DNA from: Patescibacteria group bacterium
GTDB taxonomy: Bacteria; Patescibacteriota; Microgenomatia; Levybacterales; UBA12049
Direction of reading: 5' to 3'
Assembly (NCBI GenBank): GCA_035946335.1
Contig: DASYZL010000006.1
Span: 175,664 to 239,663, forward strand
DNA length: 64,000 bases
Shown here: piece after piece, positions 9,639 to 27,686 of the stretch
Position numbering within the stretch: position 1 is the stretch's first letter
Layout of the letters: each line of letters begins with the position of its first letter
Notes under the pieces: generated by a model
Databases searched by the model: none
What the model was told of the DNA's origin: nothing
Seen by the model: the letters and a program-made list of their open reading frames with translations, nothing else
Position numbers and translations under genes: made by a program

Positions 9639-11054
9639 TTAACTATGGGATAGTATCATATCTCCCGTCTGAAAGTCAAGTAATGGGGAGATGAGCACGC
9701 CGCATTCATTCGGTGCTTCTACCTTCGAGGCTGTTTCTTTACCCTGCCTGACTGAAATAATGGAACTTTCTCCTACCTGTTCGTCATTTCGCATGATACG
9801 AATTTTATCCCCTTTTGCGATCCTGCCGTCAGTTACTTTTAATCCTAATACGATTGTCTTTTCAAAAGGAAACTTTGCTTGAATTTGAGCAACGCCGTAA
9901 ATCTGCTCCATCTCTGCCAAACGCTTACCTTCTATAACTTCACGCAATTCATCGAGAAGTTCATATATAATGGTATAATTTTTAATGAGTACTTTTTCTG
10001 TGCGAGCAAAATGAATGATATTTGTTTTGAGCTTAATGTTGAACGTTAAGATAAGCGCACCGATTGACTTCGCGTAAAGCACGTCTGCCTCAGAAATTTC
10101 GCCTGTTTTCTGGCGCATCAGGCGAACACCACTGGGAAGTGATGCTACGATCGCTTCGAGACTCCCAAGCGTATCTGCACAGAGGACTAAAGAGAAATTT
10201 CCTTCTTGGGATACAACTGGTTGCGCATATGAAAGAGTAGCCTGTCTGTTATTTCCTCCTCTTTGCACTACACTTCCGACAGCAGGAACATGCTCAAACC
10301 CTAATATTTCCGCACCGTCTCCAACAGTTATTGTTTTTTGCTGTATGCCGTTATCGTCGATAAGCGAGCGTACCCGACCTGTGATACCCTCTGCAATAAT
10401 TTCATCTTTAACCTGAAGCATTCCATTCTTTACAACAACTGTCGCCCGTGGACCGCTTTTCGTATCAAGACGAGACTCAATGACAACAGCAACAAGGGGT
10501 GCATTGGAAGATGGATGCGTACTATCGGCTGTCTGTTTTATGGCAAAAAGAAGAAGAATTAGATCAAGAAGCTCCTGAATATGCTGCCCTGTTTTTGCGG
10601 AAACTTCCAGAGTGGGCACATCGCCGCCGTATCCTTCAACGAGCACGAGCTCCTGAGAAAGCTGACGTTTAACACGTTCAGGATTCTTCTCTGGAAGATC
10701 TGATTTTGTTAAAGCAACAATAAAGGGAATACCGGCATTTTTGATAAGCTGTATTGATTCTTTTGTCTGTGGCATAATACCATCAACAGCCGATATAACA
10801 AGAATGGCAACATCAGCAACTTGCGCACCACGACTTCGCATCGCGGCAAATGTTTCATGGCCTGGAGTATCAATAAAGGTAATTTTCCGTTTTTGCCCAT
10901 CATGTAATGTTTCAATACTGGAGACTCCGATTTTTTGCGTAATGCCACCATGCTCCCGGGAAGCAATATTTGTTTTCCTGACTGCGTCCAACAAGCTTGT
11001 CTTTCCATGATCCACATGGCCTAACACTGATACAACTGGTGCAAAAGTACTCAT
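9639..11054 (-). CDS. infB: Translation initiation factor IF-2, short form that starts at the G domain
   Basis: GHVDHGKTSLLD at residues 12-23, with domain II and C-terminal beta-barrels. Conserved nusA-infB synteny. Confidence 0.9.
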   Translation of the reverse strand: MSTFAPVVSVLGHVDHGKTSLLDAVRKTNIASREHGGITQKIGVSSIETLHDGQKRKITFIDTPGHETFAAMRSRGAQVADVAILVISAVDGIMPQTKESIQLIKNAGIPFIVALTKSDLPEKNPERVKRQLSQELVLVEGYGGDVPTLEVSAKTGQHIQELLDLILLLFAIKQTADSTHPSSNAPLVAVVIESRLDTKSGPRATVVVKNGMLQVKDEIIAEGITGRVRSLIDDNGIQQKTITVGDGAEILGFEHVPAVGSVVQRGGNNRQATLSYAQPVVSQEGNFSLVLCADTLGSLEAIVASLPSGVRLMRQKTGEISEADVLYAKSIGALILTFNIKLKTNIIHFARTEKVLIKNYTIIYELLDELREVIEGKRLAEMEQIYGVAQIQAKFPFEKTIVLGLKVTDGRIAKGDKIRIMRNDEQVGESSIISVRQGKETASKVEAPNECGVLISPLLDFQTGDMILSHS

Positions 11055-21560: not shown

Positions 21561-22616
21561 CTAGAAGTATGAGTATCCCCATTGCGCTACTGAACTGATT
21601 CCGTTTTTGAGGAGCAATTTTTCTTTCTGCGCACGTATTACTTCATCATCAAACCATACTTCATGCTGTTTCCCTGCTGCGTCTGTATAGCGAATCTGAA
21701 TTCCTGTCATTGTTTTTGCTACTGAACAGCCCTGAAAAGCACAATGTGAAAGAAATAATTGCTGTATTTCGTTGTCTGTGTACGTTACTGCCTGGGCTGT
21801 GCTCTTGCCGAGATGATCTACGGGCCAGTCATATCCGAACCTTCCGAAAATGACGGTAATTTTCCCTGCCGGGACCCTCCGGGAAAAATCCTGGATCATT
21901 TGATTAAATGTGTAGTCAATGCTACTAACCAAAGGGAATGCTGGTCCTGGATCACCATTTGCTTTGTGTAAATCATATGCAAGGACATAGATACCGTCAG
22001 TGGTTTTCCCGATTGTTCCGACATCATATGGGCGAAGGCGGTAAAACGTGTCACCATACAATGCCTCATAGTATAAAAGGTGTGCACTATGTGTTTGTAA
22101 TGCAAAGTTTTTGATAAACGACGATACTGTCGCGACAACATCCGGAAATGCAAGCGCGTTATATTCAAAGTCAACAACAATACCGGTGAAACCGTTCGCT
22201 TGTGCTGTTTGTATTGCTTGAGATATTATTGTCTGTTGTAATGCACGCTTATGCAATAATGTCTCGTTTATGTCTTGCGTCAGTAATCGCACTGTCAAAA
22301 GCTTCGTTGCTCCCGTAGGAACGGTATGCAGAAACACATGAAGATTCTTGTACCCATCTTCTGTGATATCGATACCATTAACAGTAGCGGTGATGCCAAA
22401 GTAGATAATTGGATTATACTGATTTGGCAAGGTTTTTCCATTAAGTGTCCAATAAGGAACAAAAAGACCTGATGGTTGTAAGGCAGTAAGAGGAGCAGGA
22501 GAAGGAAGCAGAGTTACGTGTATTTTTTCAGGAATTTTTTTGCTATGCGACAGTGGCTGATGATAGCCAAAGAAAGTTGTTGTGCCAAGTAAGAACAGGA
22601 CAAGCAGTTGTTTCAT
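21561..22616 (-). CDS. Secreted GH18-like (chitinase/YaaH-like) glycosyl hydrolase family protein
   Basis: Signal peptide, and GIVVDFEY resembling the GH18 DxxDxDxE catalytic motif. Confidence 0.4.
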   Translation of the reverse strand: MKQLLVLFLLGTTTFFGYHQPLSHSKKIPEKIHVTLLPSPAPLTALQPSGLFVPYWTLNGKTLPNQYNPIIYFGITATVNGIDITEDGYKNLHVFLHTVPTGATKLLTVRLLTQDINETLLHKRALQQTIISQAIQTAQANGFTGIVVDFEYNALAFPDVVATVSSFIKNFALQTHSAHLLYYEALYGDTFYRLRPYDVGTIGKTTDGIYVLAYDLHKANGDPGPAFPLVSSIDYTFNQMIQDFSRRVPAGKITVIFGRFGYDWPVDHLGKSTAQAVTYTDNEIQQLFLSHCAFQGCSVAKTMTGIQIRYTDAAGKQHEVWFDDEVIRAQKEKLLLKNGISSVAQWGYSYF

Positions 22617-22765
22617 GTCTGCATACTATACTCTTCCAATATTCTCCGAAATTTTCTTCTTTTGCATATCTGCTAACTCCTGTGAAGTACAATACTCCAG
22701 GTAATCCCACTATACCATATTTCTCTTCTAACAGAATCGTATTCCCAATGGTATACTATCACACG

Positions 22766-24547
22766 ATGGACCAGGTCACTGAAGTCAGACAAAAAACAGA
22801 TATCGTACAACTTATTCAGGAGTATCTTCCGTTAAAGAAAGCAGGTCATAATTTCAAAGCAAACTGTCCGTTTCACGAAGAAAAATCACCCTCTTTTATT
22901 GTCTCGCCGCAGCGGCAAATATGGCATTGTTTTGGTGGTTGTGGAAAAGGAGGAGACGTATTCTCTTTTCTTATGGAATATGAACATATTGAATTTCCTG
23001 AAGCATTACGAATACTTGCTGATAAAGCAGGCGTAAAACTTATTCAAAAAAACTTTGATAGTTCCTCTTCTTCAAAAAAAGAAATGCTGTATGGTATTAA
23101 CCGTTTAGCTGCTGAGTTTTATCATTATCTATTAACCAAACATACGCTGGGGAAAAACGCACTGCAATACGCTACGGAAAAACGACATATCAAACCGCAA
23201 ACGCTACGAACATTTCTTATCGGGTATGCACCAACTGGTAGCGCACTAACAACATACTTAATAAAGAAGAAAGGATATACATCGCAAGACCTGCTTGACG
23301 CAGGACTTGCATATAAACGCGGAAATCTTCTATTTGATTTTTTCCAGGACAGGTTACTGTTTGCTCTTTATGACCACCGGGGTAATATTGTCGGTTTTTC
23401 CGGTCGCATATTACAGAATACCGATAAAACTTCTAAATATATAAACACCAGAGAAACGCTTATATACCACAAGGGCATGACATTTTTCGGCTTCAATACA
23501 GCAAAAGAAACAATCAAGAAAGAAAATCTGGCAATTCTTATGGAAGGAGAGCTTGATGTCATCTCATCTTTTCAGGAAGGTATTACAAATGTTGTCGCTG
23601 TTAAGGGAACTGCGCTTACTGAAGATCAAGTTATCTTGCTGTCACGATTCTGCTCTAAAGTAGCGTTATGCTTTGATATGGATGCGCCGGGACAGGAGGC
23701 GTTGAAACGAAGCCTTGCCCACCTAGAAAAAAAGAATATGGCAACCTTAGTTATTGTTTTAACAGGGGGCAAAGATGCAGACGAAGTCATTCAGCAAGAT
23801 GCAATAATATTTAAGAAAGCAATCAAGCACCCGGTACATGTGTATGATTATTTACTGGATCAGATAGCGAATAAATATAGTATTTCAACTGCGGTAGGTA
23901 AACAGCAGATCGGTGATGAACTCCTGCCGCTTTTTGGACAAATCAATAATGAAATTATCAAAGAACATTATATCCAAAAGCTTTCCAGCGTACTACATGT
24001 ATCACATGACGCATTGGAGAGAGAATTGGCAAAACGACAGAAAGAGACTGTTGCTAAACAACAACTGAAACTCCTTACAAAACCTGCTTCCAAAAGCCGC
24101 GAAGAAATGCTGGAAACATATTTTCTTGCTCTGCTTGTACAATTCCCACAACCGAAAATACTTATAGAAAAAACACTACCTCTTCTTTCATCGTATCAAT
24201 GGCATAATGTCTCACTGGGAAAAGTATTCCATTTTTTATCGCTTTATTCCTCGGCACATACCGCTTTTAACCATGAAGATTTCACATCTTCCCTTGCGCA
24301 GGAACTTCTTCCTGCATTCGATATTTCATACCTATTGCCAATCCCCATTCTTAACGATGACACGTTACAAAAAGAAACGCTACGCGTTGCGATTGAACTC
24401 CAGCACCAATTCCTCAAAGGAAAAGTAAAACAGCTGAGTGAACTCATCCAGCAGAAAGAACAAGAAGGAAATATGGAAGAAATTGAAAAAATGCAAAAAG
24501 AATTTAATGAATTAATAGAGCAAATGCATAGAAAAGACGACAAATAG
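22766..24547 (+). CDS. dnaG: DNA primase DnaG
   Basis: Zn-binding CPFHEEKSPSF...CFGCG motif and a TOPRIM domain (EGELDVISS, DMDAPGQEA). Start at MDQVTEV. Conserved dnaG-rpoD synteny. Confidence 0.85.
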   Translation: MDQVTEVRQKTDIVQLIQEYLPLKKAGHNFKANCPFHEEKSPSFIVSPQRQIWHCFGGCGKGGDVFSFLMEYEHIEFPEALRILADKAGVKLIQKNFDSSSSSKKEMLYGINRLAAEFYHYLLTKHTLGKNALQYATEKRHIKPQTLRTFLIGYAPTGSALTTYLIKKKGYTSQDLLDAGLAYKRGNLLFDFFQDRLLFALYDHRGNIVGFSGRILQNTDKTSKYINTRETLIYHKGMTFFGFNTAKETIKKENLAILMEGELDVISSFQEGITNVVAVKGTALTEDQVILLSRFCSKVALCFDMDAPGQEALKRSLAHLEKKNMATLVIVLTGGKDADEVIQQDAIIFKKAIKHPVHVYDYLLDQIANKYSISTAVGKQQIGDELLPLFGQINNEIIKEHYIQKLSSVLHVSHDALERELAKRQKETVAKQQLKLLTKPASKSREEMLETYFLALLVQFPQPKILIEKTLPLLSSYQWHNVSLGKVFHFLSLYSSAHTAFNHEDFTSSLAQELLPAFDISYLLPIPILNDDTLQKETLRVAIELQHQFLKGKVKQLSELIQQKEQEGNMEEIEKMQKEFNELIEQMHRKDDK

Positions 24548-24691: not shown

Positions 24692-25774
24692 ATGAAATCC
24701 CAACAAAATACCTTGCTTTCCGATATCACCGCGTCTGCAAAAAAGCGCGGATACATTACTCAAGATGAAATTCTTGGCATTTTTTCCCGTCCCGAAGAAC
24801 ACATCAAGGAACTGGACAGCTTATATGACAAACTCATGAAAATGAACATCGATGTGTTTGAAAACATTGATGAAGAAAAAGATCAGGCAAAACCCATCGA
24901 GGACCTGGAAAAAGAACTGGAAGCATTGACTGTTTTGACAGAAGGAACGGTTTCAGATCCGGTAAGGATGTACTTAAAAGAAATCGGACGTATCCCCCTT
25001 TTAACATTTGCTCAGGAAATTGATTTAGCAAAACGTGTTGAAAAAGGTGAAAAAGCAGCAAAACAAAAATTAATAACATCTAACCTTCGACTTGTCGTGT
25101 CGATTGCAAAAAAATATGTCGGACGCGGACTGACACTATTGGATTTAATTCAGGAAGGTAATCAGGGACTTATCCGCGCCGTTGAAAAATATGATTGGCG
25201 ACGGGGCTACAAATTTTCAACTTATGCAACCTGGTGGATTCGCCAAAGTATCACCCGAGCGATTGCAGATCAAGCAAGGACGATTCGTATTCCTGTACAC
25301 ATGGTAGAAAATATTAACCGATTTTTGCGGGCAAGTCGAAAACTCATGCAGGAATTGGGCCGCGAACCAACACCTGAAGAAGTGGCAAAAGTGCTAGGAA
25401 TCGATGAAGAAAAAGCACTTGAGATTATTAAAATTTCTCAAGAGCCTGCAAGTCTTGAGTCACCGGTTGGCGATGAGGAAGATTCACGACTTGGTGACTT
25501 CATCTCAGATGTCCAGGCACCAACATTGTTTGACGCTGCAAGTAAAGAATTGCTGAAAGAACAGGTAGATCAAGTGTTGCAATCATTGTCTGACCGGGAG
25601 CGACGGGTTTTGGAAGAACGTTTTGGCCTAAAAGACGGGAGACCAAAGACACTGGAGGAGGTAGGAAAAATGTTTGCTGTTACTCGAGAACGTATTAGGC
25701 AGATTGAAGCAAAGGCACTTCGAAAACTTCGTCATCCCAGCCGGGGTAATAAATTGCGTGACTATCTCAGTTAA
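24692..25774 (+). CDS. rpoD: RNA polymerase sigma-70 factor RpoD
   Basis: Regions 1.2, 2, 3 and 4 are present ([40 protein letters not shown], and the region 4 HTH). Confidence 0.9.
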
Positions 25775-25916: not shown

Positions 25917-26206
25917 TCCGCGATAGCTCAATGGTAGAGCAGGAAGCTGTAAAAGTGCAGCTTCCAGAAGTAATTCTGGATGAAACATGGGGTGAATTCA
26001 GGGAAGCCAATACGGTAATCCTGAGCCAAATTTGGTGAATGGTATAAGAGTAACCAAAAAGGTGCAGAGACTAGAAGTGAGGAACCAATCCAATACGCTT
26101 CACAGCGCCCCACATCCTAAAAAGGATGATGATATAGTCCATGCTTTTTGGAAACAAAAAGGTTTGTGTAACTTCAAGGTTCTAGGTTCGAATCCTAGTC
26201 GCGGAG
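25917..26206 (+). tRNA. tRNA-Asn(GUU) interrupted by a group I intron; exons 25917..25950 and 26169..26206
   Basis: The spliced product folds as a cloverleaf. The 7-bp acceptor stem is TCCGCGA/TCGCGGA with U1-A72 and a G73 discriminator, both typical of bacterial tRNA-Asn. The D arm is GCTC/GAGC, the T arm is CTAGG-TTCGAAT-CCTAG, and the anticodon loop is CU-GUU-AA. Confidence 0.8.
25951..26168 (+). ncRNA. Group I self-splicing intron (IC3-like) inserted between anticodon positions 35 and 36
   Basis: P1 forms between the exon end AGCUGU and the internal guide GCAGCU, with a U-G pair at the splice site. The R element (GGTGCAGAGACTAGAAG) and S element (GATGATATAGTCC) form P7. A Q-like GAGCCAAA is present, a P9 hairpin (CTTTTTGGAAACAAAAAG) precedes the 3' splice site, and the intron ends in omega-G. 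Confidence 0.8.
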
Positions 26207-27391
26207 CAAAAAATCTCTTATTATAACCGCATGATTCTCTTGTAATACTGAGAAAATCGGAGTATAGACAATTTTAACAATCTTCTTATCTTGCACAATT
26301 AGCTTCTCAAAGAAGAACCGTAGGTAATGGCGTTTAAGGAATTTGGGAGCTTGTAAATATGTAGTATGGATATTTCTGGTAAATGCTAAAACCTCCTCGA
26401 TTAAGTTTACGTCCATATTTGCGCTATTTTCTATCTCCTGAATAAGATTGTTTAAGTTGGTAATCTTATCATTAACTTCTGTGTGCTTGCGTTGGTAGGC
26501 TTCTCTGTCTATTGTGCCGTCAATAACAGCATCTTCAAGTTTATTTCTTTTGATTTCTAATACTGTTTTTTGGTTAATAATACCTTGCTTTTGTGCATCA
26601 ATGGTCCTTCTGTTTTCTGCTACGACATCCTTTGCTTTCTGAACAACTATGTCTATAAATTCTGGGGTAAACTGCATTTTCTCTATTTCTTTTTCAACCT
26701 GTTTTTCCAATGCGTCTGCTTCAACGTAGAGGGCAGGACAGCCGTTTCTATCTCTCTTTTGGCAGTGGTAGTAGTGGATAATGCCTTTTCTCTCAAGAGA
26801 GTTAATCTTGTGCTTATCTGCGGTATATCTTTGACCGCAGTTGGAACAATACATAAACCCTCGCAAAAGGTAGTCATGGGTTCTTTTCCTGACAAGGAAA
26901 TCCCTATGTTTCGCTAAAACATACTGGCAGGTATCGAACAAATCCTTTGTAATAATTGGTGCGTGTTTGCCAATTCTAGACTCTCCATGCCAACGTATTA
27001 TGCCGTAGTAAAAGGGATTTTTGAGAATATTATTTATCACGCTATGTCCAATTATCGTACCAGTTCTTGAGAGTATATTTTTATCAGAAAGCCAATCTTG
27101 CAGTTCGAGAATACTGTGATTGCCAGTAGAATAAATCTCAAACATTTGTTTTATAACTGGTGCTACGTACGGGTCTGGTTCGCATGTTTTCTTTTGGTCT
27201 TCCTCTCCGACACTTCGATAGCCGATATATAAGGGGGACGGTTGCCATCCCTCTCTAAACTTTTGCGCTAAAGCATCTCTTGTTCGTTGTCCGTTTACTT
27301 CGGACTCCCATTCAGCGATAGAAGCCATTAGATTGCCAATTAGTCCGTCAGAAACATCACCTTCCTGAACAGACAGTAGTTTAATTGCCAT
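26195..27391 (-). CDS. Large serine recombinase (integrase), C-terminal segment (recombinase domain, zinc ribbon, coiled coil); out of frame with its N-terminal segment
   Basis: The alpha-E helix region, a Cys cluster (CSNCGQRY...CQKRDRNGC) and a coiled coil are present. The stop codon overlaps the tRNA 3' end. Confidence 0.75.
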   Translation of the reverse strand: MAIKLLSVQEGDVSDGLIGNLMASIAEWESEVNGQRTRDALAQKFREGWQPSPLYIGYRSVGEEDQKKTCEPDPYVAPVIKQMFEIYSTGNHSILELQDWLSDKNILSRTGTIIGHSVINNILKNPFYYGIIRWHGESRIGKHAPIITKDLFDTCQYVLAKHRDFLVRKRTHDYLLRGFMYCSNCGQRYTADKHKINSLERKGIIHYYHCQKRDRNGCPALYVEADALEKQVEKEIEKMQFTPEFIDIVVQKAKDVVAENRRTIDAQKQGIINQKTVLEIKRNKLEDAVIDGTIDREAYQRKHTEVNDKITNLNNLIQEIENSANMDVNLIEEVLAFTRNIHTTYLQAPKFLKRHYLRFFFEKLIVQDKKIVKIVYTPIFSVLQENHAVIIRDFLLRD

Positions 27392-27686
27392 AATTTCTCA
27401 TCTCCTTTCGTATATTCGCAAAATCTCCAACATTCCTGAACAATCTATCTAATTTGTAAAAAATGAGTGCATCAACTGGGTCTTTCTTGAGAAGCGTGAA
27501 CATTTCCTGAAATGCAGGTCTATCAGTTGTTCTTGCGCTTTTTCCGTCATCAGAAAAAATTCTTTTGATTTCATAGCCGTGCATTTTCGCATAATCAACA
27601 CAAGCTCTTTTTTGGTTATCAATAGAGAATCCCTCTTTAGCCTGTTCTTCTGTGCTTACTCTTATATAAATGTAACAAGTTTTCAT
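27381..27686 (-). CDS. Large serine recombinase, N-terminal catalytic (resolvase) segment; a frameshift lies relative to the downstream segment
   Basis: YIRVSTEEQ contains the catalytic Ser, followed by DRLFRN. It overlaps the C-terminal ORF by 11 nt in a different frame. Confidence 0.7.
   Translation of the reverse strand: MKTCYIYIRVSTEEQAKEGFSIDNQKRACVDYAKMHGYEIKRIFSDDGKSARTTDRPAFQEMFTLLKKDPVDALIFYKLDRLFRNVGDFANIRKEMRNYGN

Follow-up and report, generated by a model that had tools for sequence, protein, structure and literature searches.

Gene content of the locus

The window, as we call the whole 64-kb stretch of DNA that was analysed, carries a tRNA-Asn(GUU) gene at 25917-26206 (+) that, according to its sequence and to ARAGORN, is split between nucleotides 35 and 36. 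It is preceded by dnaG and rpoD and met at its 3' end by a convergent recombinase gene, as listed below.

22553-24547: dnaG, followed by rpoD
24692-25774: rpoD, with the split tRNA-Asn 143 nt downstream
25917..25950 (+): tRNA-Asn 5' exon, nt 1-35, ending C32 U33 G34 U35 (ARAGORN -i; spliced cloverleaf; 90% exon identity to published Microgenomatia tRNA-Asn)
25951..26168 (+): group I intron of 218 nt without homing-endonuclease ORF, terminal (omega) G at 26168 (Rfam RF00028, 107.4 bits; 67-71% identity to published tRNA-Asn introns)
26169..26206 (+): tRNA-Asn 3' exon, U36 A37 A38 ... A72 G73, no CCA encoded
26195-27686 (-): large serine recombinase, convergent with the tRNA, its stop codon overlapping the tRNA 3' end
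27381-27686 (-): recombinase ORF with Resolvase N-terminal domain
26195-27391 (-): recombinase ORF with Recombinase domain and zinc ribbon

Default ARAGORN called zero tRNA genes in the whole 64-kb window. Intron-aware calling over the locus (ARAGORN -i) returned tRNA-Asn(gtt) i(35,218), in agreement with the gene that the original prediction had read from the sequence. The intron follows the 34th nucleotide of the gene; as the D-loop lacks one nucleotide, this corresponds to 35/36 of the standard numbering. For the same reason the exons total 72 nt through G73, so that the mature length of 73 nt given in the original prediction has to be corrected. The 5' exon (25917-25950) ends in ...GGAAGCUGU, and its in-silico joining to 26169-26206 yields a canonical cloverleaf with anticodon GUU; among 49 offsets tried, an Asn anticodon arises from the proposed junction only. 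The predicted hallmarks of a bacterial tRNA-Asn, namely U1-A72, the discriminator G73 and anticodon GUU, are present in the window sequence as well as in the spliced cloverleaf. The top of the anticodon stem carries a G27.A43 mismatch, which is also found in the published Microgenomatia homologue and is therefore not a sign of decay.

Structure of the intron

The intervening sequence was recognized by the Rfam family Intron_gpI (RF00028) at 25941-26161 (+), at 107.4 bits (gathering score 50; E = 6.3e-27). The match spans the complete model (positions 1-253 of 253), and Intron_gpI was the sole Rfam family above threshold in the 64-kb window. Folded alone, the intron reached -71.8 kcal/mol (z = -4.1, 200 dinucleotide shuffles). 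No ORF is contained in it, and the ORFs that overlap it are all mechanical calls of at most 73 aa. Manual assignment of the helices, based on the Rfam alignment and on the sequence itself, gave 11, all of which pair perfectly in the window. They are given here with their support in the alignment of 53 sequences described in the next section.

25944..25963 (+): P1, exon AAGCUGU 25944-25950 with guide GCAGCUU 25957-25963; U25950.G25957 marks the 5' splice site
25964..25979 (+): P2 hairpin CCAGAA/UUCUGG, 25964-25969/25974-25979, with GUAA (GNRA) loop; compensatory changes in 6/6 pairs, 96% of cells paired
25989..26111 (+): P3, GGGGUG 25989-25994 with CGCCCC 26106-26111, pseudoknotted with P7; both-side changes in 5/6 pairs, 88% paired
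25998..26024 (+): P4, 25998-26003/26019-26024, and P5, 26006-26008/26014-26016; 92-100% paired, 6 pairs with compensatory changes
26025..26063 (+): P6, 26025-26027/26061-26063, and P6a, 26031-26036/26053-26058; 91-94% paired, 9/9 pairs with compensatory changes
26069..26139 (+): P7, the guanosine-binding helix, GACUA 26069-26073 with UAGUC 26135-26139; invariant in 53/53, 100% paired
26074..26101 (+): P7.1 hairpin GAAGUG/CGCUUC, 26074-26079/26096-26101, between P7 and P3'; 6/6 pairs form in the window
26113..26128 (+): P8 hairpin CAUCCU/AGGAUG, 26113-26118/26123-26128; compensatory changes in 5/6 pairs, 82% paired
26144..26161 (+): P9 hairpin CUUUUUG/CAAAAAG, 26144-26150/26155-26161, with GAAA (GNRA) loop; compensatory changes in 6/7 pairs, 87% paired

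The group I intron that had been proposed to split tRNA-Asn(GUU) at 35/36 is thus borne out by the full-length covariance-model match, ARAGORN -i, the P1 wobble, P7 and the terminal G. Its individual elements were likewise located as described from the letters alone: P1 with its terminal U-G pair (AAGCUGU with GCAGCUU, U25950.G25957), the R element GGTGCAGAGACTAGAAG at 26061-26077, the S element GATGATATAGTCC at 26128-26140, the Q-like element GAGCCAAA at 26023-26030, and the P9 hairpin with terminal G 26168. The P3-P9 core folds, every helix pairing in the window, and is backed by covariation across the 53 homologues. P7.1 is not alignable family-wide, with 43% of its cells paired.

Relatives and covariation

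Relatives were collected with the search pattern ATATAGTC, 15-45 nt, GTAA, 14 nt, GTTCRA, which joins the J8/7-P7 motif to a tRNA-Asn-type 3' exon and for which shuffles gave a chance expectation of 0 matches in the window. Together with the folding z-score of the intron, this excludes a chance origin of the feature. It matched at least 119 stretches of species-representative genomes and 81 viral contigs. After intron-aware tRNA calling, and with every junction considered that has U at -1 and an intron ending in G, at least 88 loci beyond the window could be read as tRNA-Asn(GUU) split at 35/36, at least 82 of them genomic and 6 on viral contigs. Intron length among the matches listed lies between 194 and 723 nt (median 258 nt). 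The original prediction had considered the intron compact enough to be a minimal ribozyme; at 218 nt it is of ordinary size, as 10 of the 88 relatives listed are shorter (the shortest 194 nt) and the published range is 184-894 nt (PMC13011429).

According to their record titles, the relatives listed belong overwhelmingly to Patescibacteria/CPR (Saccharibacteria, Parcubacteria/Paceibacterota, Microgenomates, Peregrinibacteria and others), and a few are titled Omnitrophota, Elusimicrobia, Planctomycetales or 'Gammaproteobacteria'. Six MAGs with a split tRNA-Asn are labelled 'uncultured Gammaproteobacteria bacterium' (L018, L053, L084, L085, L108, L119). Several of these encode homologues of the dnaG or rpoD of the window in a CPR-like arrangement, and the taxonomy given for these MAGs looks questionable. 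Introns of 450 nt or more were seen in 24 listed family members (e.g., L009, L039, L046, L051, L063, L070). In many of the long members the first GCAG, presumably the guide, lies about 240-340 nt 3' of the 5' splice site, so that their extra sequence would occupy the P1 loop. In published examples that encode an HNH protein, the ORF also directly follows the splice site (PMC13011429).

Covariation was assessed on a MAFFT alignment of the window and 52 relatives with introns below 300 nt (n=53). RNAalifold recovered the anticodon stem, P1, P2, P4, P5, P6, P6a, P7 and P9; 27 of the 37 pairs show compensatory changes. When the full structure was scored with the pseudoknot made explicit, 84.8% of cells were paired, compared with 35.5-43.2% when the 3' partners were slid by 1-3 columns; the covariation score was 0.471 versus at most 0.119 in the slid controls, and the observed values were reached by 0 of 500 shuffles. 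Changes on both sides of a pair occur in P2, P3, P4, P5, P6, P6a, P8 and P9, and P7 never varies. The window has every family-invariant nucleotide, including GCAGC, AGAGACUA and AUAUAGUCC. GNRA loops cap P2 in 51 and P9 in 50 of the 53 aligned sequences. The Azoarcus intron has GNRA loops on P2 and P9.

Pairing at the 5' splice site is equally conserved. The guide GCAGC is invariant in 53/53 aligned sequences and was found in 89/89 listed family members; in each of the 53 aligned sequences CUG of the exon pairs with CAG of the guide, and all 89 listed members have CUGU before the 5' splice site, GCAGC beyond it, and G followed by UAA across the 3' splice site. These motif counts were used to verify the wobble, the P1 wobble column of the alignment being uninformative (37.8% paired) because MAFFT scattered the splice-site U over gap columns. 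P1 of the window can extend to 9 bp if the CC common with P2 is included. The family-conserved guide extension CUUCC complements the 5' strand of the window's anticodon stem, GGAAG (25944-25965), and P1 of the window can therefore reach 7-9 bp, compared with 4-6 bp in most relatives. So extended, P1 is in competition both with the anticodon stem and with P2, whose first two pairs are affected.

The alignment also contains a distinct subset without a hairpin between P7 and P3' (AGACUAGAUACCGA...), comprising L018, L025, L034, L043, L052, L056, L058, L060 and L090. Its members have a divergent P3/J3-4 (GGGAUAAC) and P6 (GUGGGAAC), which points to at least two intron architectures at the tRNA-Asn 35/36 site.

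Host and genomic neighbourhood

The gene order dnaG-rpoD-tRNA-Asn(intron) was also found in many of the fetched CPR loci, and the best RpoD matches (58-61% identity) are MAGs named Patescibacteria UBA6130, Parcubacteria and Shapirobacteria. Judged by this synteny and by the RpoD matches, the host is a member of the Patescibacteria. This rpoD is also encoded on contigs of two data sets, sequencing run SRR12347820 and assembly ERZ1758400; a contig name suggests forest soil as the source of the latter.

The recombinase downstream is divided into two overlapping ORFs, which implies a frameshift, reflecting either a pseudogene or a sequencing error. GC content is 0.40-0.44 upstream, 0.33-0.42 (mostly 0.34-0.39) at 26-62 kb and 0.446 thereafter. 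The independent contig L001 matches the window without a difference (100%) as far as position 26195, where it ends. The recombinase, the drop in GC and the end of L001 suggest a putative element integrated at the 3' end of the tRNA, possibly covering about 26.2-62 kb. No second copy of the tRNA 3' end that could represent the attachment-site duplicate was found with three or fewer mismatches. PHROGs profiles, applied to 10 large ORFs of the downstream low-GC region, detected no terminase, portal, capsid or other phage structural gene, the only hits being an HNH-domain protein, an ABC transporter and an epimerase; for lack of structural genes among these ORFs the region was not called a prophage.

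In about a dozen other loci (L018, L048, L034, L026, L035, L039, L029, L192, L028, L151, L058 and L071), the split tRNA-Asn has a homologue of the window recombinase no more than a few kb away (tblastn E 1e-69 to 1e-22), and CPR genomes may repeatedly receive serine-recombinase elements at tRNA-Asn. Separately, IMG/VR viral contigs of 59-163 kb carry the 35/36-split tRNA-Asn within dense tRNA arrays:

L125, 160-403 (-): split tRNA-Asn on a phage-like contig
L154, 5553-5788 (-): split tRNA-Asn on a phage-like contig
L175, 935-1195 (+): split tRNA-Asn on a phage-like contig
L197, about 9718-9983 (-): split tRNA-Asn on a phage-like contig
Phage-like contigs concerned: IMGVR_UViG_3300028299_000003, _3300033153_009805, _3300010352_001405 and _3300025867_000010

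Phage-borne copies of the intron-bearing tRNA hence exist. L125, L154 and L197 have 8-15 tRNAs within a few kb and Intron_gpI scores of 90-96 bits; L175 appears identical to L197 in the region of the split tRNA. Three phage copies have the acceptor end G1-C72/G73, as opposed to U1-A72 in the cellular genes. By BLAST, phage copies are among the closest relatives of the window intron within the matches listed. GOLLD RNA (RF02032) was matched at L175:312-770 (+) and L197:10127-10585 (-), with 155.2 bits against a gathering score of 150, each match enclosing a tRNA-Lys and being situated about 165 nt from the split tRNA-Asn of these phage-like contigs. Unlike the intron class, its surroundings might be new. 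That phages or integrative elements carry and target the intron-bearing tRNA-Asn, and so serve as a vehicle for the spread of the intron, is a speculative idea to which we give little weight. If true, introns of this kind, most of which encode no endonuclease, could by this route reach Patescibacteria at large and other phyla as well. The published survey, which was confined to complete bacterial genomes, regarded their horizontal transfer as infrequent (PMC13011429).

Proposed splicing and published precedents

We posit, with a probability of roughly 90%, that the tRNA-Asn(GUU) gene of a Patescibacteria (CPR) bacterium is interrupted at 35/36 by an ORF-less group I intron, of the IA-like type frequent in this phylum, that self-splices to give the mature tRNA. 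The gene would be transcribed as a precursor of about 290 nt, in which the guide GCAGCUU would pair with AAGCUGU of the anticodon loop and stem to form P1, with U35 as the U of the U.G wobble. P7 would bind an exogenous guanosine, which would attack the phosphodiester bond 3' of U35. The terminal G26168 would subsequently take over the guanosine site, and the freed 3'-OH of U35 would attack after G26168, joining the exons into mature tRNA-Asn with anticodon GUU and releasing the intron. The window copy most likely works as such a standard guanosine-initiated self-splicing intron, and we infer that the gene is the organism's only tRNA-Asn gene. The support in hand consists of the sequence, the Rfam match, the covarying helices, the homology to a validated intron and the Asn tRNA body.

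Introns of this type have been described before. The tFind survey raised the number of intron-interrupted bacterial tRNA classes from the four classical ones to 21 (Williams, bioRxiv 2020, 10.1101/2020.01.27.920355). The tRNA-Asn 35/36 class corresponds to 'Asn.4Ug' of that survey and is apt to be miscalled 'Thr.2Ug', as cited in PMC13011429. [quoted passage not shown] The tRNA-Asn intron of GCA_016700035.1 self-spliced precisely at 35/36 in vitro; the ligated junction was sequenced, and a mutant with omegaG changed to C was blocked at the second step (PMC13011429).

Based on the Table S3 sequences, the window intron is 67% identical to this validated intron. Its identity to the Microgenomatia intron of GCA_016700135.1 is 71% (exons 90%), and the two genes have a common anticodon arm, GGAAGCUGU...UAACUUCA, G27.A43 included. 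Over six published introns, global identity was 60-71%. Judged from its sequence, the window intron is a member of the known Patescibacteria tRNA-Asn 35/36 class. The original prediction had suggested that tRNA-Asn 35/36 may be a new insertion site, which does not hold, as the class was already catalogued in the 2020 survey (Williams, bioRxiv 10.1101/2020.01.27.920355) and both Patescibacteria cases and self-splicing have been published (PMC13011429).

Alternative readings of the gene and the intron

The junction can also be placed two nucleotides upstream on either side (offset -2/-2), which turns the gene into tRNA-Thr(UGU) with an intron at 33/34, U25948 being the last nucleotide of the 5' exon and G26166 that of the intron. 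This placement, too, puts a U in front of the 5' splice site, closes the intron with G and gives a foldable tRNA, with anticodon UGU, and ARAGORN called Thr(tgt) for 53 of the pattern-fetched genome loci. The tRNA body is equivocal by BLAST: with the loop masked, the top Asn and Thr matches tied at 51.1 bits in a small, skewed set of intron-less tRNAs taken from the fetched loci (4 Asn, 22 Thr). The two readings predict different ligated junctions, ...GGAAGCUGU joined to UAACUUCA... for Asn and ...GGAAGCU joined to UGUAACUUCA... for Thr. U25948 pairs with A25959 in Watson-Crick fashion, and only U25950 wobbles, with G25957; the best U.G-anchored helix of the window has 3 bp under the Thr reading versus 9 bp under the Asn reading. 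This helix search was used for the window only; family-wide it is noisy because many introns have long insertions in the P1 loop. The acceptor end, read by indexing of the 1:72 pair and N73 from the anticodon with a check of acceptor pairing, likewise argues for Asn: U1-A72 with G73 is present in the window, in 2/2 bacterial intron-less tRNA-Asn and in 82 of the 89 listed split tRNAs of the class (window included), as against 0/22 intron-less tRNA-Thr, 18 of which have G1-C72 with U73 in the fetched loci. Nakagawa et al. met the identical 2-nt mis-assignment, and sequencing of the spliced product gave Asn 35/36 (PMC13011429). With the wobble at U35 and not U33, this acceptor end and the sequenced junction of a homologue, the Thr reading was rejected as hardly credible. 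A decayed remnant, in which the ribozyme does not splice or the gene is a pseudo-tRNA and a separate intact tRNA-Asn serves the cell, might be suspected given that only 64 kb of the genome are in view, that the stem has the G27.A43 mismatch and that the locus adjoins mobile DNA, in the form of the serine recombinase with its frameshift and a stretch in which GC is lower. We regard decay as very unlikely, as the helices are all intact with every family-invariant nucleotide in place, G27.A43 recurs in the Microgenomatia homologue, the first 279 nt of the locus recur in an independent assembly (L001) with 100% identity, the gene occupies the conserved dnaG-rpoD-tRNA-Asn position of other CPR genomes, and there is no other tRNA in the 64-kb window.

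In the classification of Michel and Westhof, subgroup IA reportedly has one or more extra helices, P7.1/P7.2, between P7 and P3'. The window has such a helix (hairpin 26074-26101), and its P7 does not run straight into P3' as in IC3, about 32 nt lying between the two, including the 28-nt hairpin. The original prediction had likened the core to the Azoarcus and Anabaena IC3 introns. The resemblance is real in so far as GAGCCAA(A/G) and GGUGCAGAGACUA are common to the window and to IC3 introns of tRNA-Leu, fMet and Arg, and an IC3-type intron related to those of Azoarcus and Anabaena would amount to a new host site for that lineage; however, these two motifs do not define the subgroup. Against the subgroup-labelled sequences of Table S5 (PMC13011429), identity was 67-71% to IA1/IA2-labelled tRNA-Asn introns (69% to the cyanobacterial ones), compared with 51-58% to five IC3-labelled Leu, fMet and Arg introns. 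After AGAGACUA the window continues with GAAGUGAGGAACCAAUCCAAUACGCUUCAC and then with AGCGCCCC, which includes the P3' strand, matching an IA2 sequence (GGAAUGAGGAGCCCAUCCAAUAAGUUCCACAGCGCCCG). P7.1 is also present in the IA1/IA2-labelled and the validated tRNA-Asn introns, whereas P7 leads directly into P3' in the IC3 introns of tRNA-Leu and fMet. Among published introns at 35/36, 25 of 28 were classed as IA, and no Patescibacteria tRNA intron was classed as IC (PMC13011429). Taking the P7.1 hairpin and the sequence similarities together, we classify the window intron as IA-like and consider an IC3 affiliation most improbable.

Significance and comparison with known systems

The feature in the window is real and correctly delimited. 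Its practical relevance lies in annotation: default tRNA finders miss the gene, so that the genome looks as if it were without tRNA-Asn and scores as less complete, and intron-aware tools often mislabel it as tRNA-Thr(UGU). The biology, a self-splicing intron at tRNA-Asn 35/36 that is enriched in Patescibacteria, is already published. With the class on record and a homologue validated in vitro, the claim to novelty fails, and the find, though correct, is an ordinary one. The 88 or more further copies (at least 82 in species-representative genomes, 6 on viral contigs) show the class to be far commoner than the 15 cases from complete genomes, and are an extension of known work and not a discovery.

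Compared with the Patescibacteria tRNA-Asn 35/36 introns, the window intron agrees in tRNA, insertion site, the CUGU/GCAGC P1, the U35.G wobble, core sequence, P7.1, the lack of an ORF and the phylum of the host, down to the same Asn-versus-Thr ambiguity in ARAGORN and tFind. It differs by its uncultured lineage and a longer P1, and in nothing of kind. The cyanobacterial tRNA-Asn 35/36 introns (IA1/IA2) occupy the same site, are 69% identical and have a P7.1 hairpin of the same sequence type (GGAAUGAGGAGCCCAUCCAAUAAGUUCC versus GAAGUGAGGAACCAAUCCAAUACGCUUC), but they come from a different phylum and exceed it in length (282-302 nt), the additional nucleotides lying in the P1 loop and in an extension of P6. 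The classical IC3 introns (Anabaena/Nostoc tRNA-Leu at 34/35, Azoarcus tRNA-Ile at 36/37, cyanobacterial fMet and Arg) are likewise small, mostly ORF-less, self-splicing and located in the anticodon loop, and they have the exon U in a P1 wobble and the P6, J6-7 and P7 motifs in common with the window intron. They interrupt other tRNAs at other positions, their Leu and fMet members are without the hairpin between P7 and P3', their identity to the window intron is only 51-58%, and their subgroup is IC3, as opposed to IA-like in the window.
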